DNA from: Minisyncoccota bacterium | Lineage (GTDB): Bacteria; Patescibacteriota; Minisyncoccia; JAHIHE01; JAGLIN01 | Length of the DNA stretch: 64,000 nt | Direction: 5' to 3' | Assembly (NCBI GenBank): GCA_023142995.1 | Contig: JAGLIM010000024.1 | Coordinates: 6,071 to 70,070, forward strand | In this document: piece by piece, positions 37,603-55,975 of the stretch | Layout: each line of letters begins with the position of its first letter | Position numbering within the stretch: position 1 is the first letter of the stretch | Position numbers and translations under genes: made by a program | Notes under the pieces: model-generated | Seen by the model: only the letters and a program-made list of their open reading frames with translations | Databases searched by the model: none | What the model was told of the DNA's origin: nothing

Positions 37603-37677
37603 GCCGCCTTCGTCTAACGGTTAGGACATCAGGTTCTCATCCTGGCAATAGGGGTTCGATTCCCCTAGGTGGTACCA
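37603..37677 (+). tRNA. tRNA-Glu (anticodon CUC)
   Basis: GCCGCCT acceptor pairs with AGGTGGT. D-arm GTCTAACGGTTAGGAC. Anticodon stem TCAGG/CCTGG with loop TTCTCAT. T-arm AGGGGTTCGATTCCCCT. 3' ACCA. Confidence 0.85.
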
Positions 37678-39220
37678 TAAGGGATTTGAGGTCGTATGAC
37701 CTCTTTTTTATTGCTAAAACTGGCGATATTTGAGGGGTTTGAAACTTTTTATAATCGTATATTGGCTTTTCAGGGAAAATCAAACCCTGTATTTTTATTT
37801 TTTGGTTAAAATTTGCTTTTCTCCAATACTTCGGAATATTTGCAATGAAATCAAAGACATGGCTTACGGTTTCATCAATATTAAATTCTTCTATCTCATC
37901 ATCGCTTAATACAATTTGTTTATTAAATATTTCTTGTTTTAATTTATCAAATACTTCTTTAAAATCTTCATCAGATAAAAGTTCTTTTCTTTTCATATTT
38001 ATAAGTTCTATTTTTTCTGTTTTCAATTTTTCTAATTCCTTGAGAGCGTTTTGTCTATATTGATTTAATTCCTTATATCGTCTTTTCCAAGTATCAATAA
38101 TATTAATTTTAAAAATATTTAAATAAGTAGTTTTTGGGGTTATGTCTTCGAGATATTGTAAAAAGGCTTTCTCTAATTTTTCTTTTGCGATTGATTTTTT
38201 TGAATCGCAATTTCTATTGTAACATCTATAATAAGGATATTTACCTCCCCATCTTCCAGTTGAAAAATATGCTGTTAGCGGTCGTTCACAATATGCACAG
38301 ACAACAAAATGTTTTAAGGGAAAATTTTCATTTGGTTGATTAGTTGAGATATTTTCTGCTTTGTTTTTTTTATTTAGGATATTCTGGCATTTGAAAAAAG
38401 TCTGATCGCTAATAATATGTTCGTAGTTATTTTCGTATTCTTTATCTTTAACAGTCATGATTCCTATATAGAATTTACGCTTAATGATTTTACTCATTGT
38501 TTGCGGTGAAATTTCTTTATTCTGCCAGCTTTTCAAACCTTTTTTATTCACAATGTTTCTAATTTCTTCAAGGGTATATAATCCTGTCGAAAATTTCTCA
38601 AAAATCCATTTGATCATTGGAGCTTTTTTCTTATCTACAATAATTTCTTTTTTTCCAAGTTTGTCTATTGTATTTAGATAGCCAATAGGAGCTTTACCAC
38701 ACCAGTATCCTTGTTCAGCTTTTTCTTTTAAGCAGTCAGTAATTCTTTGACTTTTTGTATCATTATCAAACTGTGCACTTGAAGCTAGAAAATTTCCTAG
38801 AAACTTTCCCATTGGCGTATCATCAATCGCTTCTGATGTGGAAATAAGTCTTATGCCGAGTTTCTTGAGGGCAAGATGAATATTTGAATAGTCATTAACA
38901 TTTCTCGAGAGCCTATCAATCTTGTAAACAATAACACAATCGATTTTATTACTTCTTGCTCTGCAGAATTTAAGCATTTCTTGCAGAGATGGTCTATCGA
39001 CAGTTTTTGCAGATACTCCGTCGTCATGAAACATTTCTACTATTTCTATATTATTGCTTTCAGCATAATTTAAACAATTCTTTTTCTGTTGATCTAAACT
39101 TACACCAAATTGAGCTTGGTCTTCTGTTGAAACACGATAATACATTATTCCTCTTTTATTTATTGTCATATATTTATTGTTATTTACAAAAAGGGAGCAT
39201 TTATTCTGCTTTGAACTCAA
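37637..39220 (-). CDS. large serine recombinase (integrase); 3' end reads through the tRNA
   Basis: YYRVSTEDQ catalytic Ser region, resolvase plus recombinase domains, zinc ribbon CAYCE...YYRC, coiled coil. The last ~15 codons (..PPRGIEPLLPG) are the antisense tRNA. Confidence 0.85.
   Translation of the reverse strand: MSSKQNKCSLFVNNNKYMTINKRGIMYYRVSTEDQAQFGVSLDQQKKNCLNYAESNNIEIVEMFHDDGVSAKTVDRPSLQEMLKFCRARSNKIDCVIVYKIDRLSRNVNDYSNIHLALKKLGIRLISTSEAIDDTPMGKFLGNFLASSAQFDNDTKSQRITDCLKEKAEQGYWCGKAPIGYLNTIDKLGKKEIIVDKKKAPMIKWIFEKFSTGLYTLEEIRNIVNKKGLKSWQNKEISPQTMSKIIKRKFYIGIMTVKDKEYENNYEHIISDQTFFKCQNILNKKNKAENISTNQPNENFPLKHFVVCAYCERPLTAYFSTGRWGGKYPYYRCYNRNCDSKKSIAKEKLEKAFLQYLEDITPKTTYLNIFKINIIDTWKRRYKELNQYRQNALKELEKLKTEKIELINMKRKELLSDEDFKEVFDKLKQEIFNKQIVLSDDEIEEFNIDETVSHVFDFIANIPKYWRKANFNQKIKIQGLIFPEKPIYDYKKFQTPQISPVLAIKKRSYDLKSLMVPPRGIEPLLPG
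37688..37714 (+). terminator. intrinsic terminator of the tRNA
   Basis: GAGGTC-gtat-GACCTC followed by TTTTTTATT. Confidence 0.7.
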
Positions 39221-39338
39221 CTAACTAAAAGGAAGTTGAAGCAGAAAATGCTCCCATTATGTATCACAATAAGATCATTATTATGATATAAAAAACCTTT
39301 TAGTTTTTGTTGAGTTCAAGAACATAATACCATATTTA

Positions 39339-39515
39339 CTATTTTGAATCAATATCTCGGTTCAATTTTTGTTTCAGTCCTTTTTTAATTACCCAAGTAT
39401 CAAAAGCCAACTCTGCAAACTGGCATTGTGCGTCGATAATTTGCTCAATCTCTTCATCTGTGAGACCTTGAGCTTCTTTCCCTGCTAGTTGTCTGAATTT
39501 TGATATTGAGATCAT
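39339..39515 (-). CDS. small hypothetical protein (58 aa)
   Basis: Not in the ORF track. Minus-strand ORF MISISKFRQLAGKEAQGLTDEEIEQIIDAQCQFAELAFDTWVIKKGLKQKLNRDIDSK lies between the integrase and the Cys-rich gene. Confidence 0.3.
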   Translation of the reverse strand: MISISKFRQLAGKEAQGLTDEEIEQIIDAQCQFAELAFDTWVIKKGLKQKLNRDIDSK

Positions 39516-39671
39516 GTTATATAATATCTTTTAAAATTTACGATTTTCCATGGTTTTCCATGGTTTTTTAGCTAATCTTTCAAAAATCCACCATTTTCCA
39601 CCATTTTATTCACTTTATTTCTCACACAACGTCAAATTTAGTTTATAAACTATTTTTGATGTTGTGGTTAA

Positions 39672-40028
39672 TTAATTCCTTGTATTCTTCGCCAGTGAAC
39701 CAGTTGAATGGTTAATTATTCTAAGTTGCTTTCCATTTCCACCTATTCCTTTACGTGTTGGATTATGGCCCGTTCTATAAGGGAAAAGAGGACAATCAGT
39801 AAAGGGACAATTTCTTGTATATGAAGATCCTTCTGTGCAGTCTAAGCAACATTTTCTTATGGCCCTTAAAGAGGATTTCTTTTCTGTTCTTTTTCCAAAG
39901 CGAAAAGGAAATAGGGGACAGTCGGTACTTGAACATAAACGCACTTCTTTTTGTTGATTATTCATGCATGAATTTACACAGTATTTTCTTATGGATTTTA
40001 GAGGAGTTAATTTCTTTTTTATTTTCAT
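39672..40028 (-). CDS. cysteine-rich protein with duplicated C-x2-DCPLFP(F/Y)R motif
   Basis: Two copies of a zinc-ribbon-like motif. Confidence 0.45.
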   Translation of the reverse strand: MKIKKKLTPLKSIRKYCVNSCMNNQQKEVRLCSSTDCPLFPFRFGKRTEKKSSLRAIRKCCLDCTEGSSYTRNCPFTDCPLFPYRTGHNPTRKGIGGNGKQLRIINHSTGSLAKNTRN

Positions 40029-40092
40029 ATTTTTAATTTAGTTTTTAAACTGGCAATTTGGCAATGTATATATATAATGCCAAATTGCCGTT

Positions 40093-41160
40093 TCAGATTA
40101 AGACTTCTTGAGTTTTTTCTTCTTTGCTAAATTTTGAAAGATAGCATATTTTTGTGTTTCCTTCTCCCTTTTTTTCTAAGATAATATTTTGTATTAAAAG
40201 ATCTTTTATTGCGCTCATGATACTCTTATCGCCAATATCTTCCAGGTCTTTTACTTTCTTACATATCTCATTTTTAGCAAGTCCCCTCTGTTCTTTTTCT
40301 AGAACTGATAATACTATTTCTTTAGCTATATTTCTTTTGCTTATTTTTTCAGGACATACTCCTAGATAATTAATTTCTACTTTCCCTTCATTTTCTTCAA
40401 CAATAATATTGAATGGCTCAATTTCTTTATCGGTTCTAAGTTTAGCCTGTTCAACCAAAATTTTAGATCTGTCATCTTTATCTCTCTTGAGTGCTATATG
40501 CGCATCAACAGCTGCTGAAATATCAGAAGAGCCTCTTAGTCTATTTTGAGCGGTAGTTTTAGCGAAATATTCTTTTTTGTCGTGATGAGTTATTATTATG
40601 GTTTTACCATGTTGACAGAAAAATTTAATACATCTAAAGACTTCTGCCATTTGAGAAGCATCATTCTCTTCTGCTGTATTTACTCTCACTAAAGAATCAA
40701 TAAAAATAACATCTATTTCCTTTTGTTCGCAGATTTCTAATACGTTTTTAACTAATTCTTTTTTGGATACTAAAAATCCATTTTGCGATAAAAAATAAAT
40801 TGGAAGAGTTGATTCAGCCCCTAGTAATTTAAGCCTATCTCTTACCAATCTTAAATGATTCTCTTCGTCAATAATAAGAACTTTATTTTTTTCACATTTA
40901 AATTGACCAAATAAATTTTCTCCTTTGGCAATATCTAATGCCATTCTTAAAAGTAGCCAGGTTTTGAAACTCGCTGGAGCACCTGAAAGAATAGTTATTC
41001 CTTGGTGTGGGATAAGTTTTTCAATTACCCATTTATTTTCATGGAATTTCATGGAAAATAACTCATCCAAGCTAATAGGATTTAATTTCCATTTTTTCTG
41101 TTTTTCATCAATATTTTCTTTTTCTAACTCTAAAGTCTTTTTTTCATTTTCATTTTTCAT
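40093..41160 (-). CDS. RepA/DnaB-like replicative ATPase (AAA_25 family) of mobile elements
   Basis: Walker A GAPASFKT. Walker B LIIDEE-like region. C-terminal wHTH-like tail. Confidence 0.6.
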   Translation of the reverse strand: MKNENEKKTLELEKENIDEKQKKWKLNPISLDELFSMKFHENKWVIEKLIPHQGITILSGAPASFKTWLLLRMALDIAKGENLFGQFKCEKNKVLIIDEENHLRLVRDRLKLLGAESTLPIYFLSQNGFLVSKKELVKNVLEICEQKEIDVIFIDSLVRVNTAEENDASQMAEVFRCIKFFCQHGKTIIITHHDKKEYFAKTTAQNRLRGSSDISAAVDAHIALKRDKDDRSKILVEQAKLRTDKEIEPFNIIVEENEGKVEINYLGVCPEKISKRNIAKEIVLSVLEKEQRGLAKNEICKKVKDLEDIGDKSIMSAIKDLLIQNIILEKKGEGNTKICYLSKFSKEEKTQEVLI

Positions 41161-41173
41161 ATTTTTTAATTTA

Positions 41174-41773
41174 ATAATTATTTAAATATTCTACAGCTTC
41201 TTTAAACGAATAGTTATAAAGAAGTCTTACAAAATTTATTGAGTTACCCCCATAATTGCAACCAAAGCATCAACAAGAATTAGTTTCAAGATAGATATGG
41301 AAAGACGGGGTTTTTTCGTCATGGAGAGGACAGAGACAGACTAATGACTTACTTGTTCTTCTCAGTGGTTGATTTATAAGTGTTTCAATCGGGACCGCTA
41401 TGGCTTGTTGAATTTGATCTTCAGTTACCCATCCTTTCGGAGTTTTATTCGATGCGAACATTAATATTCCTTTAAGCTTTTTCGTTTGTTTTTCAATTTC
41501 AAGTAATTTTTGCACTTTATTTGCTTTTACCCATTCACGACAAAACCATTTTGAAAATTCATCGCCGTCTATGTTTTTTATAATAGTTAAATGTCTTTTG
41601 ATTTCTTTTGTTAAGCTTGCTTGTAATGTTTCATGTTCAATTATCTTATTTCGAATAACTTCCTTGGCCTCGGGAAATATATTCAAAAGTTCTTTATTGT
41701 TATATCTTGAAAGCGACATTCTCCATTGTTTTTCAACTTCATAATTGTATTCTTTTTTTGATTTGAATTTCAT
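41174..41773 (-). pseudogene. primase-type CHC2 zinc-finger protein interrupted by an in-frame TGA inside the zinc finger
   Basis: ..CPLHDEKTPSFHIYLETNSC-TGA-CFGCNYGGNSINFVRLLYNYSFKEAVEYL. The finger is split between the annotated ORF and the 32 in-frame codons after the stop. Confidence 0.5.
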
Positions 41774-41781
41774 ATAATGAT

Positions 41782-42030
41782 TTAACTGTTATAAATTCTT
41801 GTTTTAATATTTTTTATACAACTAGCGAAAGCAGTAGGTTCAACGCGTAATTGTTGCATGAAATATTTCTGAATTAAATTATCTAATTTCTTATCTTTTT
41901 TTATTAAGAAAATCGCTTTAGATGGATTTTGTTTGTCTATTGATTCGATTTGATAGCCGTAACAACAAAGCGTGGCACATAGAGAAAGATCACTTGATTT
42001 GTAATAATCGTTTTTTATTGATGTTTTCAT
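41782..42030 (-). CDS. hypothetical protein
   Basis: 82-aa ORF in the element replication module. Confidence 0.35.
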   Translation of the reverse strand: MKTSIKNDYYKSSDLSLCATLCCYGYQIESIDKQNPSKAIFLIKKDKKLDNLIQKYFMQQLRVEPTAFASCIKNIKTRIYNS

Positions 42031-42192
42031 GATAATTTTAGTTAATAATTATTTAATTAATTACAAGTATATTTTACTGTACTAGCTTAATACCTCTAGT
42101 GACCTCTATCTTCTTTTCGTAAAACAAAAAACAGCTCAAGTAAGCTGTTTCTTAATAAGTTATTAACACCAACCAAAAGTTAACCTAAAGTT

Positions 42193-42924
42193 TTAATCAA
42201 CAAATTTTATATTATATTTATCATTTAATTTATAACCACCAGTATCAAGATTAATTATTAAATCTTCTTTCAGTTTGAGTTTGTTTTTAAAATTTTCATT
42301 AATTTCCTTAATCTCTTTGCTTAATTGCGACAAATTCTTGTTGTATAAAATTTCAGCTAATAAGTTGCCATTTTTTTTGTTATCTTTTAAATTATGTATT
42401 ATTTTTTTTCTTTTACTCGCTGTCTTCATTGGGTAACTTAGTTCGCTATCTTTATTCTTTCTATAAATTCCTTTATTGTTGGATATAATTATATTTATTT
42501 TGTTTGTATCATTATTACTCTTTTTCACTTTGGCTCTCATTTCGTTTTTAGTAGCTTTATCAAGTATTTCATCTATTTTCTTTTCATATTCCTTGCATTT
42601 CTGTAAAAATTTTATAGTTTTTTTAACTATATAACCCTCGACAATAATCTCATTGGAATTGAAATTTTTATTTTTTTCCAGCGTCTTGTTCATTTCGTCA
42701 ATGTCACGCTTCTCAATTTTAATAATCTTCAACCTTTCCAGTTCCTCAAAAAGGGCAAGGTTTTTAGTGTTCTCATTATAAAAGGTTTTATTATTTCTTA
42801 TTGTGATAATTGGAAAATACACGGAGCCATCACTTAAGCTTTCATGTTCAGTTTTATATTTAATCCTTTGTAAGAGATTGTTTATCTCAATATTATTTTG
42901 CCTATCAGCATTGAAAATTTTCAT
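42193..42924 (-). CDS. hypothetical K/N-rich protein
   Basis: 243-aa ORF. Confidence 0.45.
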   Translation of the reverse strand: MKIFNADRQNNIEINNLLQRIKYKTEHESLSDGSVYFPIITIRNNKTFYNENTKNLALFEELERLKIIKIEKRDIDEMNKTLEKNKNFNSNEIIVEGYIVKKTIKFLQKCKEYEKKIDEILDKATKNEMRAKVKKSNNDTNKINIIISNNKGIYRKNKDSELSYPMKTASKRKKIIHNLKDNKKNGNLLAEILYNKNLSQLSKEIKEINENFKNKLKLKEDLIINLDTGGYKLNDKYNIKFVD

Positions 42925-43039
42925 ATAATTTAATATTAATTAACTTCATTCTAATACATTTTACGGGATTTATCAAAGAAATTTATCTCTGAACTTGTAA
43001 AATAATTATTTAAGAAGTATAATAATATTATAGTAAAAA

Positions 43040-43206: not shown

Positions 43207-43268
43207 ATTGCTCGTTATTAAGAATAATAATAAATTATTTATATTGTTAATCTATTACATATAATATT

Positions 43269-44471
43269 ATGAAAAAGCTATTAATAGTCGTGGGAATATT
43301 ATTTGCCTTCAGTGCAAATGCAACAACAATTCCAGAGGGTGCAGTTATAAAGACTGCAAATAATCCAGATGTATATATTGTAAAATATAAGAATGGGAAG
43401 CAGTTTAAGAGGTTGGTTTTAAACCAGCAGGTTTTTGAAAGTTACGGTCATTTAAGATGGGAGGATATTTTAATTGTTGATCAAGCCGCGATAGATTCTT
43501 TCATGACATCTAATCTGGTAAGGGCTGACGGTCAAGCAAAAGTTTATCAATTAGTTGCTAATGGAGATATTGGTAGTAAACATTATTTAGATTTCAATAG
43601 CTATGATTTGGATTCAGTTTATACTATAAATTCAGTAGATTTTGGAAATTATGTAATAGGAGAAGTTAGAGGAATTACCAAAACAAGTCAAGAAAATATT
43701 AATACTGAAAGTACTGATGAAAAACTTCAAAAGATGATATCTATAAATAAAGAATGCATCAAAACGAATACTGAAAGAATAAAAGAAAATGAGGCGCTTG
43801 TTATAAAAATAAACAATGAAATAAATAAGTATTCAGAATATTCTTTAGTTCAACAGTCAGGGCAACAACTTATTAGCGAAATAAAAAATGATTCGCATAT
43901 ATCAAATAAAATAAGCAATATTTGTAATGAATTAGTTGACGAATCAATTGCTTTACTTGGTTTGGAAAAAAGTTCTTTCAGTAGAATTTCATATTTGACG
44001 GATCAATTTACTTCTTACACAAAACAACGAGATATGAATTATGATAAAATCGGTTCTATCATGAATTCTTATGTTTTGAATGTTAAATCAGCGTTGAAAC
44101 AGGAAATAGCAGAAAAGAGCGAAAAGCTGGAAAGAATGACAGCTTCCTATGAAGCCATAGAGCAATTAAATAGTTTAATTAGCGAAGCAGATAATCAGCT
44201 GAATATTTTAAGTGTGCAAATAGAGAAAAAAAATGCAGAGATAGAAAATGCAAAAAATGGACAGTGTCTTGCAACTACTGCTCAACTAGATAGAATATTA
44301 GCGAAATTAATACCAGAATATAATTCTTTGATTGAACAATATAATGTTTATCTTGAGATAAGAAGTGATCTTGTGTCTGTTGCTGGCAAGGTAAATGATT
44401 ACGGAAAATACGGAATTCCTCTTTCTTATAAAGACAAATTATTTTTACAAGATTTGGGAATAAACTTTTAA
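43269..44471 (+). CDS. secreted coiled-coil protein (signal peptide)
   Basis: MKKLLIVVGILFAFSANA signal. Coiled-coil-rich C-terminal half. Confidence 0.5.
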   Translation: MKKLLIVVGILFAFSANATTIPEGAVIKTANNPDVYIVKYKNGKQFKRLVLNQQVFESYGHLRWEDILIVDQAAIDSFMTSNLVRADGQAKVYQLVANGDIGSKHYLDFNSYDLDSVYTINSVDFGNYVIGEVRGITKTSQENINTESTDEKLQKMISINKECIKTNTERIKENEALVIKINNEINKYSEYSLVQQSGQQLISEIKNDSHISNKISNICNELVDESIALLGLEKSSFSRISYLTDQFTSYTKQRDMNYDKIGSIMNSYVLNVKSALKQEIAEKSEKLERMTASYEAIEQLNSLISEADNQLNILSVQIEKKNAEIENAKNGQCLATTAQLDRILAKLIPEYNSLIEQYNVYLEIRSDLVSVAGKVNDYGKYGIPLSYKDKLFLQDLGINF

Positions 44472-44480
44472 TTTATAAAT

Positions 44481-44921
44481 ATGGACAAAAACAGATTAAT
44501 TTTATCAATTGCAATTTTATCAGCAAGCATTATTTTGGGCGGTTTTTATTATGCGAGCCAAGTTAATAAACAGCAGTCCATTGAGAGACAACAAGCTATT
44601 AGAATAGAAGAAGATAAAAAAGCAGATTATTTTAAAAAGAAAATAGAGTGCGAAGAATATGCCGAAGGCATAAAAAAGGAAATAGATGAATCTAATGGAG
44701 GTCGTTATATTTCTATATATACAGAAACATTTGAAATGATTTTTTATAGTCCCAAAGATAATAGTTGTTTATATGTGACTCATCGTCTAACTGGAGGTAG
44801 GGAATACTTTATTTATAACGCATTAACAAAAAATAAAATAACTTCATTTCAATTTCCAGAGCAATGGGAAGATTATAAAGAATTTATTTTAGAATATTCA
44901 GATGGAGAGATAAGGTTGTAA
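44481..44921 (+). CDS. membrane-anchored hypothetical protein
   Basis: Single N-terminal TM. Confidence 0.45.
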   Translation: MDKNRLILSIAILSASIILGGFYYASQVNKQQSIERQQAIRIEEDKKADYFKKKIECEEYAEGIKKEIDESNGGRYISIYTETFEMIFYSPKDNSCLYVTHRLTGGREYFIYNALTKNKITSFQFPEQWEDYKEFILEYSDGEIRL

Positions 44922-44960
44922 AATTTAAAATACAACAAAATATATTATTTAACAAATTTT

Positions 44961-45599
44961 ATGGCTATTTTTACACCACGAGGATTAAAAATAAGACTTC
45001 CGTTTAACTATGCATTTACCCTAGTTGCAAGACTTTATCCTAAAGTTGACGCTTTTAAGGTTTTAAAAACGACTGAAGGGCTAGAATCAATTCCTGTTTT
45101 AATAACTTTTATAGCTGGATTATTATCTTTCTATTTTAGATTGTCTTTATTCGAAATTGGTTTGTATGTTTTTATTGCTTCAGTTGTTGGCTTCCTTGTA
45201 ATGTTTTCTGGGTTGTATATAATTTCTAGACTAGATTACTTAGGAGTATTTTATAGTTATGTTTCGGGTTTTGGAATTTTGCTAATTTTGCTTATAGCAT
45301 ATGGATTTATAATGGTTGGCTGGCAAGGTGTAGTTGTCTTTTTTGTAGCAAAATTTTTAGCGGGAATTGTCAAAACGCCAATAGAAGTTAAGTTAATGAA
45401 ACAACACGGAGAATTAGGATTTCTTACTCTTTCAGAAGAACATTTTTTTAATGCATATAGAATTCATGCAAAGAGATTAGGAAAAACGACTGATATTGTC
45501 GTGTCAAACGAAGAGCTTGAAGAAGAAAATTGGAAATCAGTCTTTGAAGACTTAGCGAAGAAATGGCCAGAAGTGGTTAGAAGATTTACGATGGATTGA
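44961..45599 (+). CDS. hypothetical membrane protein
   Basis: 3-4 TM segments. Confidence 0.45.
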   Translation: MAIFTPRGLKIRLPFNYAFTLVARLYPKVDAFKVLKTTEGLESIPVLITFIAGLLSFYFRLSLFEIGLYVFIASVVGFLVMFSGLYIISRLDYLGVFYSYVSGFGILLILLIAYGFIMVGWQGVVVFFVAKFLAGIVKTPIEVKLMKQHGELGFLTLSEEHFFNAYRIHAKRLGKTTDIVVSNEELEEENWKSVFEDLAKKWPEVVRRFTMD

Positions 45600-45641
45600 G
45601 CATGATAAGATATAATTATTTTTCAGCAAAAAAATAAAATT

Positions 45642-46343
45642 ATGAATACAGAACAATTAAACAAATACTGCAAAAAGTTATGTGAAGACAGTATAGTTCA
45701 TTTTTTAAAAGATACTTGTAGTAAAGATATCTCGTGTCAGATGTCAATGCGTAATTTTATTTTGTCTCGTCGTGACTGGACGAAAAGTGATAAAGCAGAC
45801 GACATATTTGTGTTTATGGACAAACAATTTATCACCATAAATATGTTATGTTATAAATCAACGAATATACTTATAAATACGGTGATTTGTATTGCAAAAG
45901 TAGAATTAATTGATAAATCTGATAAAGATAATGAAGAAAATCTTGAAAACAATGTAAAAGAAATTGTTAAATGTGTTGAAGGTCAAGATTGGACTATTCC
46001 GTTTATACGTAAAAGATTGATTAATAAAAATAAGGAGAAAAATAAAGAAGAAGGTATATTTCCATTTACTGATGAGTTATTGAATCGTGGTTCGGCTTTA
46101 GATCGTCAGAAAAAATTAGACAGAGAAATAGAAAAGACTATTAAAAAAAGAAACTTGAACAAGAATCCAATTATATTTGAATTAGAGTTAACTGAAGAAC
46201 ATTATCCGGTCCTAAGGAGAAGAGCATTGAAGAGTCCAGAGATGTTAGAGAAAGAGATAAAGAGCATAGCGAACGCATGGCACGAAGGGGACGCGATAAG
46301 CGCGATGCAGGCACTAGAGAGCGACCTAGAGCATAGTGGTTAA
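45642..46343 (+). CDS. hypothetical protein
   Basis: 233-aa ORF upstream of the FtsZ-like gene. Confidence 0.45.
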   Translation: MNTEQLNKYCKKLCEDSIVHFLKDTCSKDISCQMSMRNFILSRRDWTKSDKADDIFVFMDKQFITINMLCYKSTNILINTVICIAKVELIDKSDKDNEENLENNVKEIVKCVEGQDWTIPFIRKRLINKNKEKNKEEGIFPFTDELLNRGSALDRQKKLDREIEKTIKKRNLNKNPIIFELELTEEHYPVLRRRALKSPEMLEKEIKSIANAWHEGDAISAMQALESDLEHSG

Positions 46344-46423
46344 TACATAAATGCAAATAAATTTTAACATTTTCTCATTTTTAACTATTCTGCTATACTT
46401 ATAATAATCAATAATCTAAATTT

Positions 46424-47338
46424 ATGCTCAAATTAGAATCTAAAATTAATATAAAAGTTGTCTCGGTTGGAAATCGTGGTTGCAATGTCCTAGAAAGATT
46501 GAATAAGTTAAAGAAAAATGGTGTGGAGTTTTGCGCAATTTCCAAGGCAGGAAAAGCTTTTAACGGTTTAAGAATTGAAAATAAGATTGAACTTCCATAC
46601 AGTTTTGATCTGGACCATAATAAAAATATCGATAAAATGGCAAAGAGTGTTGTAAATGAAAAACAAAAGGAAATTATAGAACTAGCCAGAGGAACCGATA
46701 TAGTCTTTTTTGTTTGCAATTTAGCTAATAAAGCGTCAGTTCTTCAAACGAAAGAGATTGCACAAACATTCAAAAAAACTGGCTCACTAGTGTTTTTTGT
46801 TGGAGCAACTCCTTTTCATTTTGAAGGTAAAATAAGGCGAGAATTAGTAGAGAAGGCAAGAAAAGATTTAAATAAAGAAGTTGACGCTCTTTTGATTATT
46901 GACAATGAGAAAGTTGCTAAACGAGAAATAAGCGCAAACGAAGCATTTACACAAGTAGATAGTATTGTTTCTGGTGTAATAGATTCTATACTTGATATAA
47001 TCATCAAGGAAGGTATTATCAACATTGATTTTGCTGATTTGAAAACCATTGTTCAAAATTCCGGTGAAACATTTTTCAATAATTCCACTGGCTCAAAAAA
47101 AGAAATAGTCACTGTTATAAATAATCTTTTTTCAAAATCAAACCTGTCTATTCAGAAAAATAGTTTTAGTAAGGTCCTGTATGTTATTTATGCTGGAAAA
47201 AATCTATTAACAAACGAGGTAAAGCAAATTGGTGAAAAAATCCATCAAAAAACAAGGGGGAACGAGAAGATTATTTTCGGAATAGTAGAAGATAAAAAAA
47301 TGAAAGATAAATTAAAGATAGTGATGATTGGGAGTTAA
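46424..47338 (+). CDS. FtsZ/tubulin-fold homologue with degenerate GTP-binding loops but intact T7 loop
   Basis: Colinear with FtsZ: IKVVSVGNRGCN (vs IKVIGVGGGGGN), GVEFCAIS (GVEFFAVNT), TPFHFEGKIRR (KPFNFEGKKR), ALLIIDNEKV (SLITIPNDKL), NIDFADLKTIV (NVDFADVRTVM), IVMIGS (VVATGIG). The tubulin signature GGGTGTG is replaced by NLANKAS. Confidence 0.7.
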   Translation: MLKLESKINIKVVSVGNRGCNVLERLNKLKKNGVEFCAISKAGKAFNGLRIENKIELPYSFDLDHNKNIDKMAKSVVNEKQKEIIELARGTDIVFFVCNLANKASVLQTKEIAQTFKKTGSLVFFVGATPFHFEGKIRRELVEKARKDLNKEVDALLIIDNEKVAKREISANEAFTQVDSIVSGVIDSILDIIIKEGIINIDFADLKTIVQNSGETFFNNSTGSKKEIVTVINNLFSKSNLSIQKNSFSKVLYVIYAGKNLLTNEVKQIGEKIHQKTRGNEKIIFGIVEDKKMKDKLKIVMIGS

Positions 47339-47386
47339 GTCAGTGATTAATCGACACTAGGGCAGTTAAATAATTAAATTATAACT

Positions 47387-47707
47387 ATGTTTTGGAGACA
47401 TAGATCAGGAAAAGACGGCAAAGATAAGTTTGGAAGAACTTTTGACGAGGCATGGCGAGAGCATGCTTCGTGGTGTCTTGATACATTTAAAAAGAATGAG
47501 CCTGATGACATAGCGAAAATGAATTATATTTTCAATAATTCTCCAACGCATGTAGGATGTCCTGCCGAACTTAGAAAACACTTATCAGGCAATGCGGTAT
47601 ATAATGCCTATCTTGAAATAAAAATGCATTTTAAATCATTTAAAAAATATTACACTCAAGAGGAGATTGACTCAATAAGCTACTATTTTGAAGATAATAC
47701 AGAATAA
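47387..47707 (+). CDS. hypothetical protein
   Basis: 106-aa ORF. Confidence 0.4.
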   Translation: MFWRHRSGKDGKDKFGRTFDEAWREHASWCLDTFKKNEPDDIAKMNYIFNNSPTHVGCPAELRKHLSGNAVYNAYLEIKMHFKSFKKYYTQEEIDSISYYFEDNTE

Positions 47708-48276: not shown

Positions 48277-48305
48277 TGACATATTATATTACATGGTATA
48301 GTATT
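48277..48305 (+). promoter_or_regulatory. sigma70-like promoter of higBA (TTGACA-17-TAGTAT)
   Basis: TTGACA at 48277. Confidence 0.4.
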
Positions 48306-48345
48306 ACCAATATGGGAATATATATAAATGTAACTTGTAATAAGC

Positions 48346-48633
48346 ATGAAGCTAGTGGGAAGAAAAATACTGTACGATTACAAAGAAAAACACTCTGATT
48401 CTAAATTACATATTGCGTCATGGGAAGCTGAAGTTGAAGAAGCTCAATGGAATACTCCACATGAGCTTAAGCTTAGGTATCCTAAAGCCAGTATTTTAGG
48501 AAATTTACGAGTAGTTTTTGATATTTGTGGGAATAGGTATAGGTTATTGACTATAGTTAATTATAAAAACCAAATAGTATTTGTAGAAAAAATTGGTACA
48601 CATAAGGAATATGATAAATGGAAATTAGGTTAA
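48346..48633 (+). CDS. higB: type II toxin HigB (RelE/ParE superfamily)
   Basis: VVFDICGNRYRLLTIVNYKNQIVFVEKIGTHKEYDK matches the HigB core (ViDv.GN..RLI..i.f....i.vk.I..H.EYDK). Confidence 0.7.
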   Translation: MKLVGRKILYDYKEKHSDSKLHIASWEAEVEEAQWNTPHELKLRYPKASILGNLRVVFDICGNRYRLLTIVNYKNQIVFVEKIGTHKEYDKWKLG

Positions 48634-48637
48634 AAAT

Positions 48638-49861
48638 ATGAGTAAAATAAAAGTTATAAAAACTGAAAAAGATTATAAAGAAGCACTCGAATTACTTGAA
48701 GTGCTAATGATTCGTGATCCAGATCCTGATTCAGATGAGGGTGAACAGCTTGCTGTACTTAGTACTCTTATTCGAGATTATGAATCACAATCTTTTCCTA
48801 AAACACTTCCTGGCCCTATTGATGCTATTAAATTCAGAATGGAGCAAGCCAATCTGACGCCAGTGGACCTAATTCCATATATTGGGAGTAGAAGTAGAGT
48901 GTCGGAGATTTTGTCTGGTAAACGTCAACTCACTATGCAGATGGTGAGGGCAATAGAAACTGGTTTGGGGATTCCAGCTAAAGTTCTTATAAGGAAGCCT
49001 GAAATTGAAGAGAATACGGATATTGATTTAGAATATCAAGCATGGGATAATTGTCTCGTTTCTGAAATGGAATCACGAGGATATTTTGATAGTAGTTCAT
49101 TGAAGAAAAATATCAAGGCGGAATTGTTAAAAAATTTCTTTTCCCGAATGGGACCGCAAGCTCGAATTGTTGGAATGTTGCGTAAATCAAACTATAGATC
49201 ATCGCCCCTTACAGATAAACGAGCTTTAACTGCTTGGTCTACTCGAGTTATTCAGAAAGCAGGGGGTATAAAAGTTTCAAAAAAATATAAAGATGGAACT
49301 GTTACACCTGTTTTTATGCAAAATATTGTAAAATTAAGCGTAGAAGAAGACGGAGTTTTATTAGTTCAAAAATATCTAAAAAAATATGGAATTTTATTAA
49401 TCATTGAACCTCATTTTTCTAAAACTTACTTAGATGGAGCAGCAATTTTTGTAAATAAGGATAACCCGATTATTGGTTTAACCATAAGATATGATCGATT
49501 AGATAATTTTTGGTTCACATTAATGCATGAATTGGCACATATCTCTCTTCACTATAATGAAGATATTAGTCTTTTTTATGACGAAATTGAAGGAGTTACG
49601 ATTGATATAGACGATAAGGAAAAAGAGGCAGATGCATTAGCAGAAGAGTCATTATTACCTAGGGCAAAATGGGAAGTTAGTCCCGCTAGACTAATTCCTT
49701 CTTCTATGGCAGCAAATAGTTTAGCAAAAGAACTTGGTGTACATGTAGTAATAATTGCTGGCCAAATTAGACATAAAGGAAATAAGTACATCTATTTAAA
49801 TAAAATAATTAACAAAGAGAAAGTAAGGCATTACTTTTCTAATGAGAAATGGAATAAATAA
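48638..49861 (+). CDS. higA: HigA-like XRE-HTH antitoxin fused to ImmA/IrrE-type zinc metallopeptidase domain
   Basis: HTH SRSRVSEILSGKRQLTMQMVRAIETGLGIPAKVL. HExxH FTLMHELAHISLH in the C-terminal domain. Confidence 0.65.
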   Translation: MSKIKVIKTEKDYKEALELLEVLMIRDPDPDSDEGEQLAVLSTLIRDYESQSFPKTLPGPIDAIKFRMEQANLTPVDLIPYIGSRSRVSEILSGKRQLTMQMVRAIETGLGIPAKVLIRKPEIEENTDIDLEYQAWDNCLVSEMESRGYFDSSSLKKNIKAELLKNFFSRMGPQARIVGMLRKSNYRSSPLTDKRALTAWSTRVIQKAGGIKVSKKYKDGTVTPVFMQNIVKLSVEEDGVLLVQKYLKKYGILLIIEPHFSKTYLDGAAIFVNKDNPIIGLTIRYDRLDNFWFTLMHELAHISLHYNEDISLFYDEIEGVTIDIDDKEKEADALAEESLLPRAKWEVSPARLIPSSMAANSLAKELGVHVVIIAGQIRHKGNKYIYLNKIINKEKVRHYFSNEKWNK

Positions 49862-50948
49862 TATGTTTGATTTAAAACACTACGTACCAATATTGAAATG
49901 GAAGCGGGCCGAACAAGGTGCCCTAGCTGCTTTAAGCGTGGAACATAAAAAAAATATTACTCCGTTAATTCAGTTTGTTATGCCTAACCAAAAGAAAGAA
50001 GAACAACTCAAAGACGTTGTTCAAAGATTTACAGAGCAAATTTATCAAATTCCCGATAAAATTGGAGAGGTTTGGGGTAATACGCCTATTTTTGTCGATT
50101 TTAGCTTGCTGTTTACAACTGAGCTTAAAATTAAAAGTCTTAAATATATTTTAAAAGAAGGAAGAGATCCTGGAATTACTTTAATTCCGGTTATACATCT
50201 TAATGATGATAGTAAAATAAAAAAAGTTGCTTATTCGTTGTCGAAAGAAAATGGAAGTGGTTTATGTTTGCGAATAATTTGTTCAGACTTTTCTGATTTA
50301 ATGAAATTCAATAAAGATGTCGCAGATATACTTTCAGTATCTGGATTGTCAGAAAAAGATATAGATTTATTGGTAGACATAAAAGAAATAGAAGAAAAAG
50401 ATAATAAATGCGCTAAATATTTTGCGTTGGGGCAGAAAATTAATAATTTATCAAAGTGGAGAACTTTTACTTTTGCCAGTGGCGCTTTCCTTAAGGATTT
50501 ATCTAATTGTAAATTCGATGAAGAAAACCATATATTACGTCTTGATTGGGAAAATTGGAAGGATAAAATTACAAACCAGAAGTTGAATAGAAAGCCATCA
50601 TTTGCTGACTACACAATTCAGTATCCTATTTATGAAAATATTTCGCAATTTTTTCATCCAACCACAAGCATTAAATATACTTTAGAGAATGAATGGTTGA
50701 TTATGAAAGGGAAAAAGCAAAAATTTGAATTATATTTGGCCAGTGCCGCTGAGCTAGTAAAGGATAATAGATTTTATGGAGAAAATTTTAGCTTTGGTGA
50801 CAAATATATTGCTGACAAAGCAAGACATTTTATGGTATATATAAAAAATCCTGCAATCAAAGGTACAGGAAGCACTGAAACGTGGTTAAAGGCTGGAATT
50901 AATCACCATTTAGTATTAACGGCGAATCAGGTCGCCAGTTTACCCTAA
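49842..50948 (+). CDS. hypothetical protein, possibly sce7725-like partner of the convergent PD-(D/E)xK gene
   Basis: 368-aa ORF. Its 3' end overlaps the 3' end of the minus-strand gene by ~50 bp. Confidence 0.45.
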   Translation: MRNGINNMFDLKHYVPILKWKRAEQGALAALSVEHKKNITPLIQFVMPNQKKEEQLKDVVQRFTEQIYQIPDKIGEVWGNTPIFVDFSLLFTTELKIKSLKYILKEGRDPGITLIPVIHLNDDSKIKKVAYSLSKENGSGLCLRIICSDFSDLMKFNKDVADILSVSGLSEKDIDLLVDIKEIEEKDNKCAKYFALGQKINNLSKWRTFTFASGAFLKDLSNCKFDEENHILRLDWENWKDKITNQKLNRKPSFADYTIQYPIYENISQFFHPTTSIKYTLENEWLIMKGKKQKFELYLASAAELVKDNRFYGENFSFGDKYIADKARHFMVYIKNPAIKGTGSTETWLKAGINHHLVLTANQVASLP

Positions 50949-51513
50949 AGAATATTTTTTCTCTTACTTTGTTTCCAAGAGTTTGCTGATCAAAAACTGT
51001 TGATAATTTTTGATAAATTACATCTCTTGGTTTTGAATACATTCCCTTAGCTTCATTTATTTCTTCTAAAAGTATTAGTGCTTCTTCTTTCCATAAAAGC
51101 CTTGCAACAGAAACTCTGTCTTGATCTTTATTATATTCTTCTTCTCTAATACGGTTAAACATAACTGAACCATTTGTATTAATTTTTGCTAGAATAATAC
51201 CCCACCAACTTGGTGCCATTTTTATAGTATCATATAGATGACTTTTACCAACAACTAAAGTAATCTTATTAAATACTGAATTATAGATTTCAATTTGATT
51301 CGGCAGTCTTTGTAAAGTATCTTGATCACTTTTTATTTCATAGCCGTGCATGATTCCATTGACAACTGCAATATCAATTCTGGCGTTACCATGTTGAACA
51401 CCCATTTCTTCAATTATCCTTACTCTTCTATCATTTAAATGACGTTTTTTTAGAATTTCCCTGAGAACTGAGCGTATCATTATATCGTTTGTAGAAATTG
51501 TTTCGTGAGACAT
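50899..51513 (-). CDS. PD-(D/E)xK nuclease-fold protein (sce7726-like)
   Basis: GNARIDIAVVNGIMHGYEIKSDQDTLQRL = D...(E)IK restriction-endonuclease-like core. Confidence 0.5.
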   Translation of the reverse strand: MSHETISTNDIMIRSVLREILKKRHLNDRRVRIIEEMGVQHGNARIDIAVVNGIMHGYEIKSDQDTLQRLPNQIEIYNSVFNKITLVVGKSHLYDTIKMAPSWWGIILAKINTNGSVMFNRIREEEYNKDQDRVSVARLLWKEEALILLEEINEAKGMYSKPRDVIYQKLSTVFDQQTLGNKVREKIFFRVNWRPDSPLILNGD

Positions 51514-51645
51514 ATAAATTTATCTTTATAGTTATTTATATATAAATAAGCTTACTTATATTTTATCATAAATTCGACAATAAAAGAACAGCGCCTTATT
51601 TAATTAAAATCTAATAATTATTAATATGTTCAATAAATCTATATT

Positions 51646-52008
51646 ATGAATCAAGCTCAAATTCCTCCTGAATTTTGGTATCAATCGCTACAAGCTCTAG
51701 GCGAGGGACCAAAAATACTAGCTTCAATTCTAATGGAAACAACAAAACAATTATTGTCGTCTTATTGGCAATGTATTTTATTTCTCATATTATTTACAGC
51801 ACTAATAAAAATTTTAGCGGGTAAAATTGGTAGTTTGATATATAATTTAATTTATTTTGGAATTTTATTTGTAATAATAGCAATAAGCGGATTTGAAATA
51901 TTATTTAATCCTTATTTTGATATTCTTTATTTGTTATTTCGTCCTGTTTCATTTTTTTTGACGGGGTGTATATTGGATAAATTGAAGCCGAGACATGGAA
52001 TTTATTGA
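51646..52008 (+). CDS. small hypothetical membrane protein
   Basis: Three hydrophobic segments. Confidence 0.35.
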   Translation: MNQAQIPPEFWYQSLQALGEGPKILASILMETTKQLLSSYWQCILFLILFTALIKILAGKIGSLIYNLIYFGILFVIIAISGFEILFNPYFDILYLLFRPVSFFLTGCILDKLKPRHGIY

Positions 52009-52044
52009 AGGATATAATTGATTATAATTCATTGAATCATCAAA

Positions 52045-52548
52045 ATGAAAACAAAGATCACAGTTATCAAAGATGATATAACAAAACTCAAAGTTGATGC
52101 TATTGTTAATGCAGCCAACAAAACTTTATTGGGTGGTGGAGGAGTTGATGGCGCGATTCATAATGAGGCCGGACCTAAATTACTAGAAGAGTGTAAAACA
52201 CTTGGTGGTTGCGAAGTGGGTGAGGCGAAAATAACAAAGGGATATAATTTACCTGCAAAATATATCATCCACACAGTCGGTCCGATTCATGGCCATGAAG
52301 ACGGAAAAGAGGATTCTTTACTTTTTTCTTGTTATAAAAATAGTTTAATGATTGCGAAGGAAAAAGACATTAAAACAATCGCTTTCTCTTGTATATCAAC
52401 AGGAGTCTTCAGGTTTCCAAAGGACAAAGCAGCAGAAATCGCCATGGGTACTGTAAAAAGTTTTATTCAAGAATATCCAGATGTATTCGAAGAGATTACA
52501 TTCGTGACTTTCTCGGAATCGGATTTTGATATTTATAAAGAAAACTAA
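52045..52548 (+). CDS. macro-domain protein (ADP-ribose binding / O-acetyl-ADP-ribose deacetylase family)
   Basis: [23 protein letters not shown]...[15 protein letters not shown]. Confidence 0.85.
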
Positions 52549-52628
52549 AATTATCAAAAAAGCTTTCTTGTGAAGTTTTTAAGTTATTATGAATGTGAGA
52601 ATAATTTAAATTATATTAACCTAAAAAG

Positions 52629-53972
52629 ATGTTCAATAAACCTATATCACAATTAAATTTGGAAGATATTCAAATACTCATTGATAATCAGGAAAAGGAA
52701 AGTTTGATCTTGGAATACAAACAAGAATTAACTGGAAACGATAAAGAGAAGAAAGAAATATCCAAAGATGTTTCTGCTATAGCTAACACCTGTGGCGGTT
52801 ATTTAATTATTGGTATAGAAGAGGAGGACGGGAAGGCTGCTTCAATATCTGGAACACAAGGGAAAATTGGCAGACAACCGGTTGAGGAATGGATTGAAAG
52901 TGTTCTTATCTCTAATGTCCGACCAAGATTAACAATTACTCCAAAAATTATAAGTATTGAAGCTGATCGTGATAAAGTAGTTGTAGTTATTCATATTCCA
53001 CAAAGCACTAGACGACCACATATGGTTACAATTGGTGGCAAGAACGCATATTATAGACGTCATAATTATCAAGCGACTTATGCTGATGAACATGAGGTTC
53101 GATCAATGTTTTTGGAAAACAAAAGCTCAAGTGATGAAATGAATATATTTTTGAATACACGTAATCTTATAGATTCTTCGAAAGATAATTTTGCTATTAC
53201 ACCATTATCCTCTTTGCTATTAAAATCCTTAAGAGAGACAAGAGAGCTTCCAGAGGGATTTAGTGGTGATCCTTTTGTTTTATTTTCAGCTTGTCCTCGA
53301 TACCTAGAAGAACGGGTTGATATTGCTTCAACGGATTTTCGGTCATGGCTTGATGAAAATGACAAGATAAACCTTTTTGATCTTGATATTGATTTTTTGG
53401 ATTATAACAAAGTAATTTCTGCGGACAGTATCCGTTCTTTAACCGAAGTACAAAGCGAGAAAAGAGAAGATAGATTGCCCTACAGATATGTTGAAATATT
53501 TCGAAATGGATATATAGAAAACGGCATAAGCAATGAACTAATGTGGTCTAATAACAAAATGGGACTTATGTTTCAGATTGCCTATTTTACAGCTTCTTTT
53601 TGGTTGTTCATGAAGTTTATTAAAAATATGTATGAACACATAGAATATATTGATGAAGTTAATTTGATAGTCGCGTTGTCTGATATTGATAATGTAACAC
53701 TTCATGGTTTTGGTAATAAAAATGAAAATACAAAATGGGCTAATCCTTACGATGTGTTTCATACGTCAAATATACCAACATGTAAACAGAAAAACGTAAA
53801 GATAGAAAGAAATATTGTAATAGCTGAGTTAAATGATGAATACATAGAAGAAATTGTAAAAGAAGTTTCAAGAAGAGTATCTAACGCTTTCGGGGAAAGC
53901 ATAGCAAAATGTTTTGATGATCAGGGTGTTTTTAATCGTGATCAACTAAGGGGTTTTAGAAATGTTCAATAA
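52629..53972 (+). CDS. AlbA_2 (Schlafen-like) domain protein with C-terminal domain of unknown function
   Basis: N-terminal ESLILEYKQEL...DVSAIANTCGGYLIIGIEEEDGK matches the AlbA_2 / divergent AAA_4 signature. Confidence 0.55.
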   Translation: MFNKPISQLNLEDIQILIDNQEKESLILEYKQELTGNDKEKKEISKDVSAIANTCGGYLIIGIEEEDGKAASISGTQGKIGRQPVEEWIESVLISNVRPRLTITPKIISIEADRDKVVVVIHIPQSTRRPHMVTIGGKNAYYRRHNYQATYADEHEVRSMFLENKSSSDEMNIFLNTRNLIDSSKDNFAITPLSSLLLKSLRETRELPEGFSGDPFVLFSACPRYLEERVDIASTDFRSWLDENDKINLFDLDIDFLDYNKVISADSIRSLTEVQSEKREDRLPYRYVEIFRNGYIENGISNELMWSNNKMGLMFQIAYFTASFWLFMKFIKNMYEHIEYIDEVNLIVALSDIDNVTLHGFGNKNENTKWANPYDVFHTSNIPTCKQKNVKIERNIVIAELNDEYIEEIVKEVSRRVSNAFGESIAKCFDDQGVFNRDQLRGFRNVQ

Positions 53973-54084
53973 ACTAAATCTGTTCTTGTGCAGATAGATT
54001 TGAGATATGAATATATTCATCCGTGCACACAATGCGGAGAAATAAGATAAAATTTATCAAAATATTATAATAAAAAATAACACG

Positions 54085-54276
54085 ATGATTTCCGAGGAAC
54101 AACTTAAAAAATACAAAGATATTTACAGAAAGAAATTTGGTAAGGAAATATCAGATCAAGAAGCGCTAGAGCAAGGAACAAAATTGATTAGTCTTATGGA
54201 AATTATATATAAACCAATAACTAAGAATAAATTTAAAGCAGTTCAAAAAAGGAGAAGAGAAACAGGTGATATATAG
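54085..54276 (+). CDS. small basic hypothetical protein
   Basis: 63-aa ORF. Confidence 0.25.
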   Translation: MISEEQLKKYKDIYRKKFGKEISDQEALEQGTKLISLMEIIYKPITKNKFKAVQKRRRETGDI

Positions 54277-54705
54277 TTACGAAGTAAAAAAGCAGAATAT
54301 TAAGCACAAACAAGCTTATCCAACTCCTTTATTCCTACATCCCATTTCTTAATATCTACTAATAAGGGGTTTGAACTCTCAATGCTAGGGTGTACTAGTT
54401 CAGAAAGTGGCTCTTGAAACAAAATTTGGGAGCTACCTTTTTTTATTTAAAATCTTTTAAAATGTTATCCATTAATGTGTTCTAAGTGTAAAATAGGTCA
54501 GAATGTGTTAATATGATTATAAAGAAATTTTAAAAAACTTTGATTTATGCTCTTTCGTTTTTATACTCCTCCGCTTTTAAAATTCTAATCTTGTTATTTT
54601 AAGATAATATCTCTTTGTCTAAAGATTGGTTGATTCTTAATATAGACTTGCGGCGTATTATATAAAATTATTTAAATAAATGAGTATAGATCTGTAATTA
54701 TTGCT

Positions 54706-55888: not shown

Positions 55889-55975
55889 TATGATCTAAGT
55901 CTTTTTGTATTGTAGTACGGGACAGGCTTTAGGGTCTGTTTTAAAAATGGAATAAATTCTATTAACTTATTTACT

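Follow-up and report, generated by a model that had tools for sequence, protein, structure and literature searches.

Serine integrases are commonly portrayed as enzymes that disrupt protein-coding genes, and they require a non-palindromic crossover dinucleotide for fixed orientation. Placement of attP within coding sequence, with integration altering a protein, is known from the SSV1-type archaeal integrases and from the integration-dependent immunity of mycobacteriophages; both systems use tyrosine integrases, SSV1 splitting its whole int gene and the mycobacteriophages truncating their repressor. A large survey of large serine recombinases (LSRs) grouped the targets by protein-coding gene and never mentioned tRNA (PMC10083194), and a review of mobilizable elements described serine-recombinase sites within genes (PMC5704250). 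Ghinet et al. considered integration into tRNA genes by serine recombinases to be rare and cited phiRSM1 and eight Mycobacterium elements (PMC3218068). In a group of siphovirus-type proviruses of Thermotogota a serine recombinase gene adjoins a tRNA gene, most often tRNA-Glu as in the present case, and the authors hypothesised tRNA recognition; the terms attP, attL, attachment site, overlap and direct repeat do not occur in that text (bioRxiv 10.1101/2020.11.07.368316). We analyzed a 64,000-nt stretch of contig JAGLIM010000024.1 (hereafter the window), part of a 250-kb metagenomic scaffold from a Patescibacteria genome that carries the NCBI label Pacebacteria, and propose that it harbors an element integrated at the 3’ end of tRNA-Glu(CUC) by an LSR whose own gene contains attP. 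In kind this is a commonplace site-specific integrative element that carries defence genes; the architecture of its LSR clade is unusual and apparently undescribed, and no description of an LSR clade with attP in its own open reading frame (ORF), of a tail exchange or of a donated terminator was found in open-access text.

The window LSR is similar to the phage serine integrases (Listeria A118/LI Int, Bxb1, phiC31) in its resolvase, recombinase and zinc-ribbon domains, in long helices that a structural model of a homologue places at the coiled-coil position, in the few bases common to the recombining sites, and in an outer motif located about 5 bp further out in attP. It differs from them in sequence (at most 32% identity, over the N-terminal two thirds, with no close relative among the INPHARED phages), in an extra C-terminal region of about 90 residues, in its target at a tRNA 3’ end, in the location of attP inside the LSR ORF, and in that no attP dyad was detected. 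Unlike SSV1 and the mycobacteriophage systems, the window element exchanges only the last 30 or so residues of a serine recombinase. It resembles the tRNA islands of tyrosine integrases, in which the integrase gene adjoins the tRNA 3’ end, the tRNA stays functional and the site is a variable hotspot, but it has neither a tyrosine recombinase nor a long tRNA direct repeat, only 4 nt being common to its ends. The actinomycete integrative and conjugative elements of Mycobacterium (tRNA-Leu) and the filamentous phage phiRSM1 (tRNA-Ser) also integrate into tRNA genes by serine recombinases; they differ in host and element type, the phiRSM1 enzyme is small and resolvase-like, and no overlap between ORF and tRNA is reported in the accessible part of the source (PMC3218068).

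An intact tRNA-Glu(CUC) (37603-37677, + strand, ARAGORN) is the sole tRNA in the window. A preliminary description had proposed that an LSR-driven element was integrated here, with the recombinase gene running antisense into the tRNA 3’ end. We confirmed both points: the LSR ORF (502 or 527 aa; 37637-39145 or 37637-39220, – strand) matched Resolvase PF00239 (E 1.5e-35, residues 25-172), Recombinase PF07508 (E 1.2e-15) and Zn_ribbon_recom PF13408 (E 2.4e-10), and it overlaps the tRNA by 41 nt. The final residues of the 502-aa form, MVPPRGIEPLLPG, are the antisense reading of the tRNA acceptor 3’ strand and T arm, with the last 11 (PPRGIEPLLPG) coded antisense to the tRNA. Val491 was invariant in 40 aligned homologues, as were the R-V-S of YYRVSTEDQ and D-R-L-S-R. 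More than 100 homologues carry the same kind of tail; among the 120 closest (31-100% identical, mostly Patescibacteria), 103 end in a tRNA-antisense tail such as ..V-PRGIEPLLPG, APTGIEPVLPH or RRIELLLPH.

Four full-length homologues diverged directly after the invariant valine into a mutually similar longer tail (..DYCIENLHPLILDIRRW..), and two partial homologues diverged at the same point. A homologue's long tail, searched against the window by tblastn, gave one match, at 54461-54342 on the – strand (E 0.002). A profile built from eight tails, none of them from the window, matched 54395 to 54321 on the same strand (E 2.7e-6); it ranked first among 3036 six-frame segments, ahead of a second match at E 0.042. 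The region from 54300 to 54395 (– strand) is thus recognized by tblastn, by translation and by an unbiased hidden Markov model as an alternative LSR tail exon, V-HPSIESSNPLLVDIKKWDVGIKELDKLVCA-stop; its 31-codon frame is open and encodes a 30-residue tail (HPSIESSNP..DIKKW..). The 90% cluster of the window LSR contained no long-tail member, and P0122, a candidate long-tail member of an LSR cluster, was rejected as an unrelated 56-aa sequence.

We place the element at 37676-54395 (16,720 bp), inserted by the LSR at the extreme 3’ end of tRNA-Glu(CUC), and give this reading, together with the attP architecture described below, a probability of roughly 0.85; a size near 16.8 kb and a right end near 54.4 kb had been anticipated, and both estimates were borne out. 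The boundaries and the continuity of the reading frames can be read directly from the sequence. The sole block common to attL and attR is GTAC, which forms the attL core at 37672-37675 and the attR core at 54392-54395, the latter being the right element boundary as judged by translation, attL/attR comparison and the tail profile. On the + strand, the attL junction reads ..CCCCTAGGTGGTAC|CATAAGGG.. and the attR junction reads ..CAATGCTAGGGTGTAC|TAGTTCAGAAAG.., and at both the valine codon is complementary to tRNA positions 74-73-72, with the LSR and tail frames crossing the core in register. The B arm of attL consists of the tRNA acceptor 3’ strand and T arm. The P’ arm of attP (37676-37713, + strand) lies antisense within the LSR codons KKRSYDLKSLM and doubles as a predicted intrinsic terminator, and the P arm (54358-54391, – strand) comprises the first 35 or so nt of the tail exon, as delimited by an alignment of the P and B arms with a 5-nt shift. 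The B’ arm (54396-54446, + strand) is what originally flanked the tRNA on its 3’ side.

Across the window and six other loci, the seven attL/attR pairs had GTAC, GTAG, GTGG or GT alone in common, and GT was the one dinucleotide present in all seven. As the pairs have only GT in common at the core, we infer that the crossover dinucleotide is probably tRNA A73-C74 (37674-37675), which reads GT in the LSR sense inside the Val491 codon and is non-palindromic. The att sites are short and have no long identical core, GTAC being the only identity, as expected of a serine integrase. Recombination within GTAC would fuse the 30-residue tail in frame to the LSR body, generating a 521-aa enzyme, and would restore a tRNA gene ending in ..GGTGGTAC, followed by TAGTTCAG... 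The predicted empty-site junction is ..GGTGGTAC|TAGTTCAGAAAG.. and the predicted circle junction is ..GCTAGGGTGTAC|CATAAGGG..; the longer reconstructed junctions read ...CTCTCAATGCTAGGGTGTAC|CATAAGGGATTTGAGGTCG... for attP and ...GGTTCGATTCCCCTAGGTGGTAC|TAGTTCAGAAAGTGGCTC... for attB. The CCA of the window tRNA gene (37675-37677) is partly supplied by the element (..GGTAC|CA). In the related locus L010 the element supplies TA at the tRNA end, and neither the reconstructed empty site nor the element-free relative L095 encodes CCA, the L095 tRNA gene ending in ..GGTAC|AAATTCAAAG, like the reconstructed attB ..GGTAC|TAGTTCAGAAAG.

The preliminary description had quoted a string at 54361-54398, which matches the letters of the window exactly, as resembling the tRNA 3’ half. 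By plain local alignment the resemblance did not stand: the score was 16, compared to a mean best score of 20.8 for shuffled queries against the same target. Likewise, when the whole tRNA, its 3’ half or the tRNA plus flank was locally aligned to the remainder of the window, including the 56.7-57.1 kb region and the surroundings of 54.4 kb, nothing exceeded shuffled controls. The resemblance did stand under a serine-integrase model. Outward from the core, the tRNA B arm reads GTACCACCTAGG-----GGAATCGAACCCCTATT and the element P arm reads GTACACCCTAGCATTGAGAGTTCAAACCCCTTATT, giving 20/32 matches with one 5-nt insertion, a value reached by a fraction of 0.018 of shuffles. The best insertion was 5 nt in five of the seven pairs and 4 nt in the other two, and the matches summed over all pairs rose from 72 without an insertion to 113-116 at 4-5 nt. 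The motif of the zinc-ribbon domain is present in both sites of serine integrases, with a distance to the centre that is 5 bp shorter for attB than for attP (PMC3783163); the outward shift of the outer motif in our predicted attP is the one expected from this. The resemblance to the tRNA is real on these grounds, and it is that of a predicted attP P arm imitating the target half-site. The proposal of a decayed attR was therefore right as to position, although what lies there is an intact P arm and no decayed tRNA repeat; a displaced 3’ half of the tRNA is not supported, attL and attR having only GTAC in common, the tRNA-like stretch being on the element's side of the crossover and its reading frame being conserved in homologous free or tandem forms. 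The echo between the two protein tails (GIEPLL and IESSNPLL) arises because both are subject to the same DNA constraint.

A terminator scan in the tRNA sense identified a hairpin, GAGGTC-GTAT-GACCTC followed by TTTTTTATT, at 37688-37703, 11 nt past the tRNA; on the other strand the same stretch encodes KKRSYDLK of the LSR. Of 53 loci, 43 had a hairpin with a T-run in the LSR ORF just past the tRNA, their stems differing widely in sequence, and an alignment of 18 sequences revealed compensatory changes in 5/8 stem pairs. Since hairpin and T-run are conserved with different stems and with covariation, conservation of the peptide ..K-K-E-L-A-x-A-x-S-S.. in part reflects a predicted terminator donated by the element. 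The predicted native terminator of the tRNA (hairpin 54407-54436 and T-run) is found 12 nt past the attR core, where the model predicts it, and at the L011 locus a terminator also follows the attR core directly.

We surveyed one genome per GTDB species and obtained 80 loci with LSR relatives 26-76% identical to the window enzyme, 74 of which could be evaluated. These were from Patescibacteria (several classes, including Saccharibacteria), Gastranaerophilales, and Chitinophagales and other Bacteroidota, with single genomes in Myxococcota, Dormiibacterota and Aegiribacteria; IMG/VR yielded one close LSR relative only. The LSR ORF ended in or read through an antisense tRNA at 62 of the 74 loci: 53 stopped inside the tRNA, typically 39-41 nt in, and nine more read through. 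The targets among the 53 were Glu (28), Ala (10), Arg (7), Met (4), Lys (2), Pro (1) and Leu (1). The preliminary description had considered a serine recombinase at a tRNA site to be uncommon; this agrees with the literature (PMC3218068), but such sites are the rule within this LSR clade. The closest relative (L010, Moraniibacteriota) has a 76% identical LSR at the same murF-tRNA-Glu(CUC) locus and little cargo in common with the window. The LSR is the only gene general to the elements; AAA_25, DUF5659, the Cys-rich protein and the stretch overlapping the 58-aa ORF each recur in one or two loci.

The homologue P0020 (59% identical) has a long-tail LSR and is encoded on a 10,823-bp Logan contig (L003) that carries no tRNA; its ends overlap by 30 nt, and the contig is therefore consistent with a circle. 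Its cargo includes a restriction-modification module (N6_N4_Mtase, ResIII, DUF5655). This circular-looking 10.8-kb element would be a good substrate for reconstruction of a native attP. In the P0095 tandem arrays at tRNA-Arg(UCU), the long tail is on the inner LSR at the element-element junction, and the outer LSR has a 39-nt overlap with the tRNA. L011 (E 8e-12, element about 10 kb) and L015 also have attachment-site tail exons of the attR type, which are located upstream of the LSR and on the expected strand; weaker ones are present in four further contexts (L013, L005/L006, L021/L019 and L039). Each LSR element of the tandem arrays L005-L009 at tRNA-Arg(UCU) contains a rolling-circle Rep gene, and a diversity-generating retroelement (RVT_1 and bAvd) adjoins these arrays. 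L009 (5137-11894) has two LSR genes; the attR-type tail located further upstream in L005/L006 may mark a third junction.

The predicted sites and the two tails suggest the following mechanism. In the free circle, attP would span the 3’ end of the LSR gene, with the P’ arm formed by LSR codons ~480-490 (hairpin and T-run on the other strand) and the P arm formed by the first codons of the 30-residue tail, which would imitate the T-arm/acceptor half-site of the tRNA. In the P arm the outer motif AACCCC, which the B arm also has, would sit 5 bp farther out, and this offset would let the serine integrase tell attP from attB. Integration would leave the tRNA whole, hand it a new element-borne terminator, and exchange the conserved tail for 11 tRNA-antisense residues, converting the 521-aa enzyme to 502 aa. 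We tentatively raise the possibility, which we think unlikely, that the placement of attP in the gene is a built-in state switch between a free 521-aa and an integrated 502-aa isoform. The host tRNA would then determine the tail of the integrated isoform; stability, integration/excision bias or partner binding could differ between the isoforms; and directionality would be partly encoded by the recombination product, beyond a separate directionality factor. On that reading the clade would also amount to natural integrases aimed at near-universal tRNA 3’ ends. Any effect of the tail exchange on activity or direction is hypothetical.

The alternative that survives best, although we rate it somewhat below even odds, is that the overlap of ORF and tRNA is meaningless read-through, the functional LSR ending before the tRNA and the tails having no role. 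In an AlphaFold2 model of P0020, the body has pLDDT (predicted local distance difference test) values of about 75-95 (10-residue block means), with dips near 270-280 and 420-430, and long helices at 347-394 and 400-423 in the zinc-ribbon region, the site of the coiled coil in characterised integrases. Residues 485-528, which are coded by P’, core and P, have pLDDT values below 50, so the tail is probably a flexible appendage, and this is the observation that read-through would explain. On the other hand, the full-length relatives examined have no in-frame stop before the crossover codon, and the valine at this position is the invariant Val491. Moreover, the motif (D/E)-I-(K/R)-(K/R)-W is found 39-54 nt past the crossover, outside the attP half-site of about 25 bp that is implied by the 40-50-bp sites of the literature. 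It has been preserved while its codons changed synonymously or conservatively, a pattern suggestive of selection on the protein.

Several results count against the mechanism that we prefer. No empty site or circular junction of the window element was found in contigs with an identical MurF or Fic: those with flanking genes all bear the element (four read for MurF and eight for Fic; the places shown were five ZHAN22-2 metagenome samples and one NCBI assembly), and scans of JGI metagenomes for the exact attP and attB junctions gave 0 matches. The flank of L095 (80 nt past the tRNA) has a weak likeness to 54396 onward that is not above chance, and its best matches to the window lie elsewhere, within the shuffled range. 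Taken individually, the similarity of P to B is significant only for the window and L011. Dyad symmetry of P’ and P about GT or nearby centres was at random level in the seven attP sites (4-7/24 complementary), and recognition of P’ and B’ by the LSR is putative, given this absent signal. No recombination directionality factor was identified in the element, such factors having no common sequence family. Finally, a stop interrupts the primase zinc finger of the element.

Some of these results would also be expected if the boundaries were right and the copy were a fixed, immobile remnant with a domesticated defence island, namely its integrated state in every contig with flanking genes, the failure to find junction sequences elsewhere and the stop in the primase. 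We consider this unlikely, though far from negligible. The LSR ORF is intact and keeps all invariant residues of the catalytic domain, the tail exon is still open and encodes ..D-I-K-K-W.., which is unexpected after long inactivity, and minority excised forms are rarely reported in assemblies. The window copy may, on these features, still be active.

It is quite improbable that the mobile unit is larger, including the Fic, shikimate-kinase-like and 95-aa genes (54836-56936) and ending near purD at about 57.1 kb. These genes look accessory (the Fic gene is SoFic-like, E 2.3e-16) and are absent downstream of the tRNA in both element-free relatives, within the 4-10 kb of flank available. However, 54395 is the one place in the window with a tail or P-arm signal, it is directly followed by a terminator of the kind usual in tRNA 3’ flanks, there is no tRNA-like or alternative-tail match at 54.4-57.2 kb, and the region could be the residue of an older insertion at a hotspot. 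The SoFic-like Fic gene (54836-55888) is located just outside the element, in a stretch absent from the available flanks of both relatives. Upstream of it are two 50-nt direct repeats (54698-54822; 88% identical, 75 nt apart), each containing AATGTCACAATTAGCC..AATGTCGCAATTAAATG, with an operator-like look. The least credible alternative is a classical tRNA island, in which the element carried the tRNA 3’ half and 54361-54398 is the mutated displaced direct repeat: the two sequences are alike (about 20/32 with one gap) and a recombinase beside a tRNA 3’ end is the geometry of tyrosine-integrase islands, but the enzyme is a serine recombinase, of a kind that, in the systems studied, uses a 2-bp crossover within 40-50-bp sites and no long core (PMC3783163), the element ends are identical over 4 nt only, plain alignment scores below the shuffled mean, the similarity requires an indel of about 5 nt that recurs in 7/7 pairs, and the intact, conserved 31-codon frame is also present in the circular homologue, which contains no host DNA.

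The preliminary description had further suggested that the insertion separates murF from later genes of the division and cell wall (dcw) cluster. In the window, the tRNA is preceded by mraZ-rsmH-ftsL-PBP-murF, where PBP is a penicillin-binding protein gene. Two relatives without an LSR, L094 (MurF 74% identical) and L095 (MurF 66%, 831-kb scaffold), have the order UbiA...mraZ-rsmH-ftsL-PBP-murF-tRNA-Glu(CUC), the tRNA-Glu of the window differing from that of L094 by one substitution. In both, similarity to the window ends at the tRNA and unrelated genes follow, with no continuation of the dcw cluster. Since murF is followed by tRNA-Glu in these relatives without any element, the dcw cluster is not interrupted by the insertion and the suggestion is not supported; across the three genomes the tRNA-Glu is the boundary of variable content. 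We considered whether L094 retains an LSR remnant, the sequence ..GGTACCATAA.. after its tRNA being like the window attL; alignment gave no support for it.

Inside the element, the small Cys-rich protein, the RepA-like ATPase, the interrupted primase gene and the cargo on the opposite strand were all found as the preliminary description had listed them. Following the LSR on the – strand is a 58-aa ORF (39339-39515), which is in the ORF list and is called as a gene in the source contigs; it is a candidate accessory or directionality factor. A tblastn match to L010 came from the overlapping 39298-39474 (– strand) in another frame and says nothing about the 58-aa product. A 63-aa ORF (54085-54276, + strand) at the other end is a candidate accessory recombination factor. 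Both ORFs are small, acidic and loosely alike, and they flank the two att regions. Together with the gene of the Cys-rich protein, they are the candidate directionality factors of the element. The Cys-rich protein (118 aa, 39672-40028, – strand) has two CxxC-type repeats, matches zf-C4pol below the Pfam cut-off and has a relative in L013. The RepA/DnaB-like AAA_25 ATPase (40093-41160, – strand; Pfam E 1.8e-25, PHROGs primase/helicase families) corresponds to the helicase part of a primase-helicase. Pfam and translation through the stop identified a C-terminal CHC2 primase zinc ribbon without TOPRIM (41165-41773, – strand), in which the finger (41270-41773) is split by the stop and reads ..CPLHDEKTPSFHIYLETNSC*CFGCNYGG.. 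(..ETNSC*CFGCNYGG..). Because the primase zinc finger carries a stop, autonomous replication may have been lost. The same 167-aa CHC2 gene call was present in other contigs of the population. A DUF5659 protein (41782-42030, – strand; Pfam), which recurs in L010 and L055, and a 243-aa protein without an assigned function after a Pfam scan (42193-42924, – strand) complete this strand of the left part.

The opposite-strand cargo begins at 43269 (+ strand). Its first part (43269-47707; Pfam) has no assigned function and includes an FtsZ-core paralogue of 304 aa (46424-47338, + strand) that matched FtsZ structures in PDB at E 1e-30 over residues 8-302. In place of the GTP-binding signature GGGTGTG this protein has ..FFVCNLANKASV.., its N-terminal GGGGGN reads GNRGCN, and a C-terminal linker and tail are missing. 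It may act in division inhibition, as a decoy or in partition, and the other LSR loci yielded no counterpart. Next comes a complete PD-Lambda-2 defence system (genes A, B and C, 48346-50948, + strand), with contiguous PADLOC matches of 1.5e-36 for A, 1.8e-140 for B (profile 1-399 of 402) and 1.9e-39 for C, and with Pfam matches to HigB_toxin, Peptidase_M78 and Beta_protein; A is HigB-like, B combines a helix-turn-helix with an M78 peptidase, and C is Beta-protein-like. As in known PD-Lambda-2 systems, the three adjacent genes match the PADLOC models nearly full length, but here they are in a Patescibacteria mobile element with an opposite-strand neighbour, a P4 cII-like gene convergent with the system (50899-51513, – strand; PADLOC 6.9e-29). 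The remaining cargo (51646-54276, + strand; Pfam scans) consists of a hydrophobic 120-aa protein, a Macro-domain protein (52045-52548), a Schlafen/AlbA_2 protein (52629-53972) and the 63-aa ORF.

We rejected three other classes of element. Among the scanned ORFs at 37637-54395, there were no Pfam or PHROGs matches to capsid, terminase, portal, tail or lysis proteins of a prophage, PHROGs covering ten element ORFs and the 58-aa ORF (39339-39515) lying outside the scans. Pfam scans found no relaxase or type IV secretion system domain of an integrative and conjugative or integrative mobilizable element, several ORFs being without annotation and a novel relaxase possible. A tyrosine-integrase tRNA island was rejected on the lack of a Phage_integrase domain in the scanned ORFs and on element ends that are identical over 4 nt only.

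The LSR clade integrates at tRNA genes systematically and has been seen in Patescibacteria, Gastranaerophilales, Bacteroidota and other phyla. This provides a rule for delimiting islands in genomes of uncultured bacteria: at one end the LSR ORF runs antisense into a tRNA and stops there, and at the far end the alternative tail is encoded. One short stretch of DNA serves as coding sequence, as recombination half-site and as predicted tRNA terminator, and the recombinase protein changes with the integration state. To our knowledge, few genetic tools exist for Patescibacteria. Enzymes that target conserved tRNA 3’ ends and spare the tRNA could serve as landing-pad tools, including in Patescibacteria.

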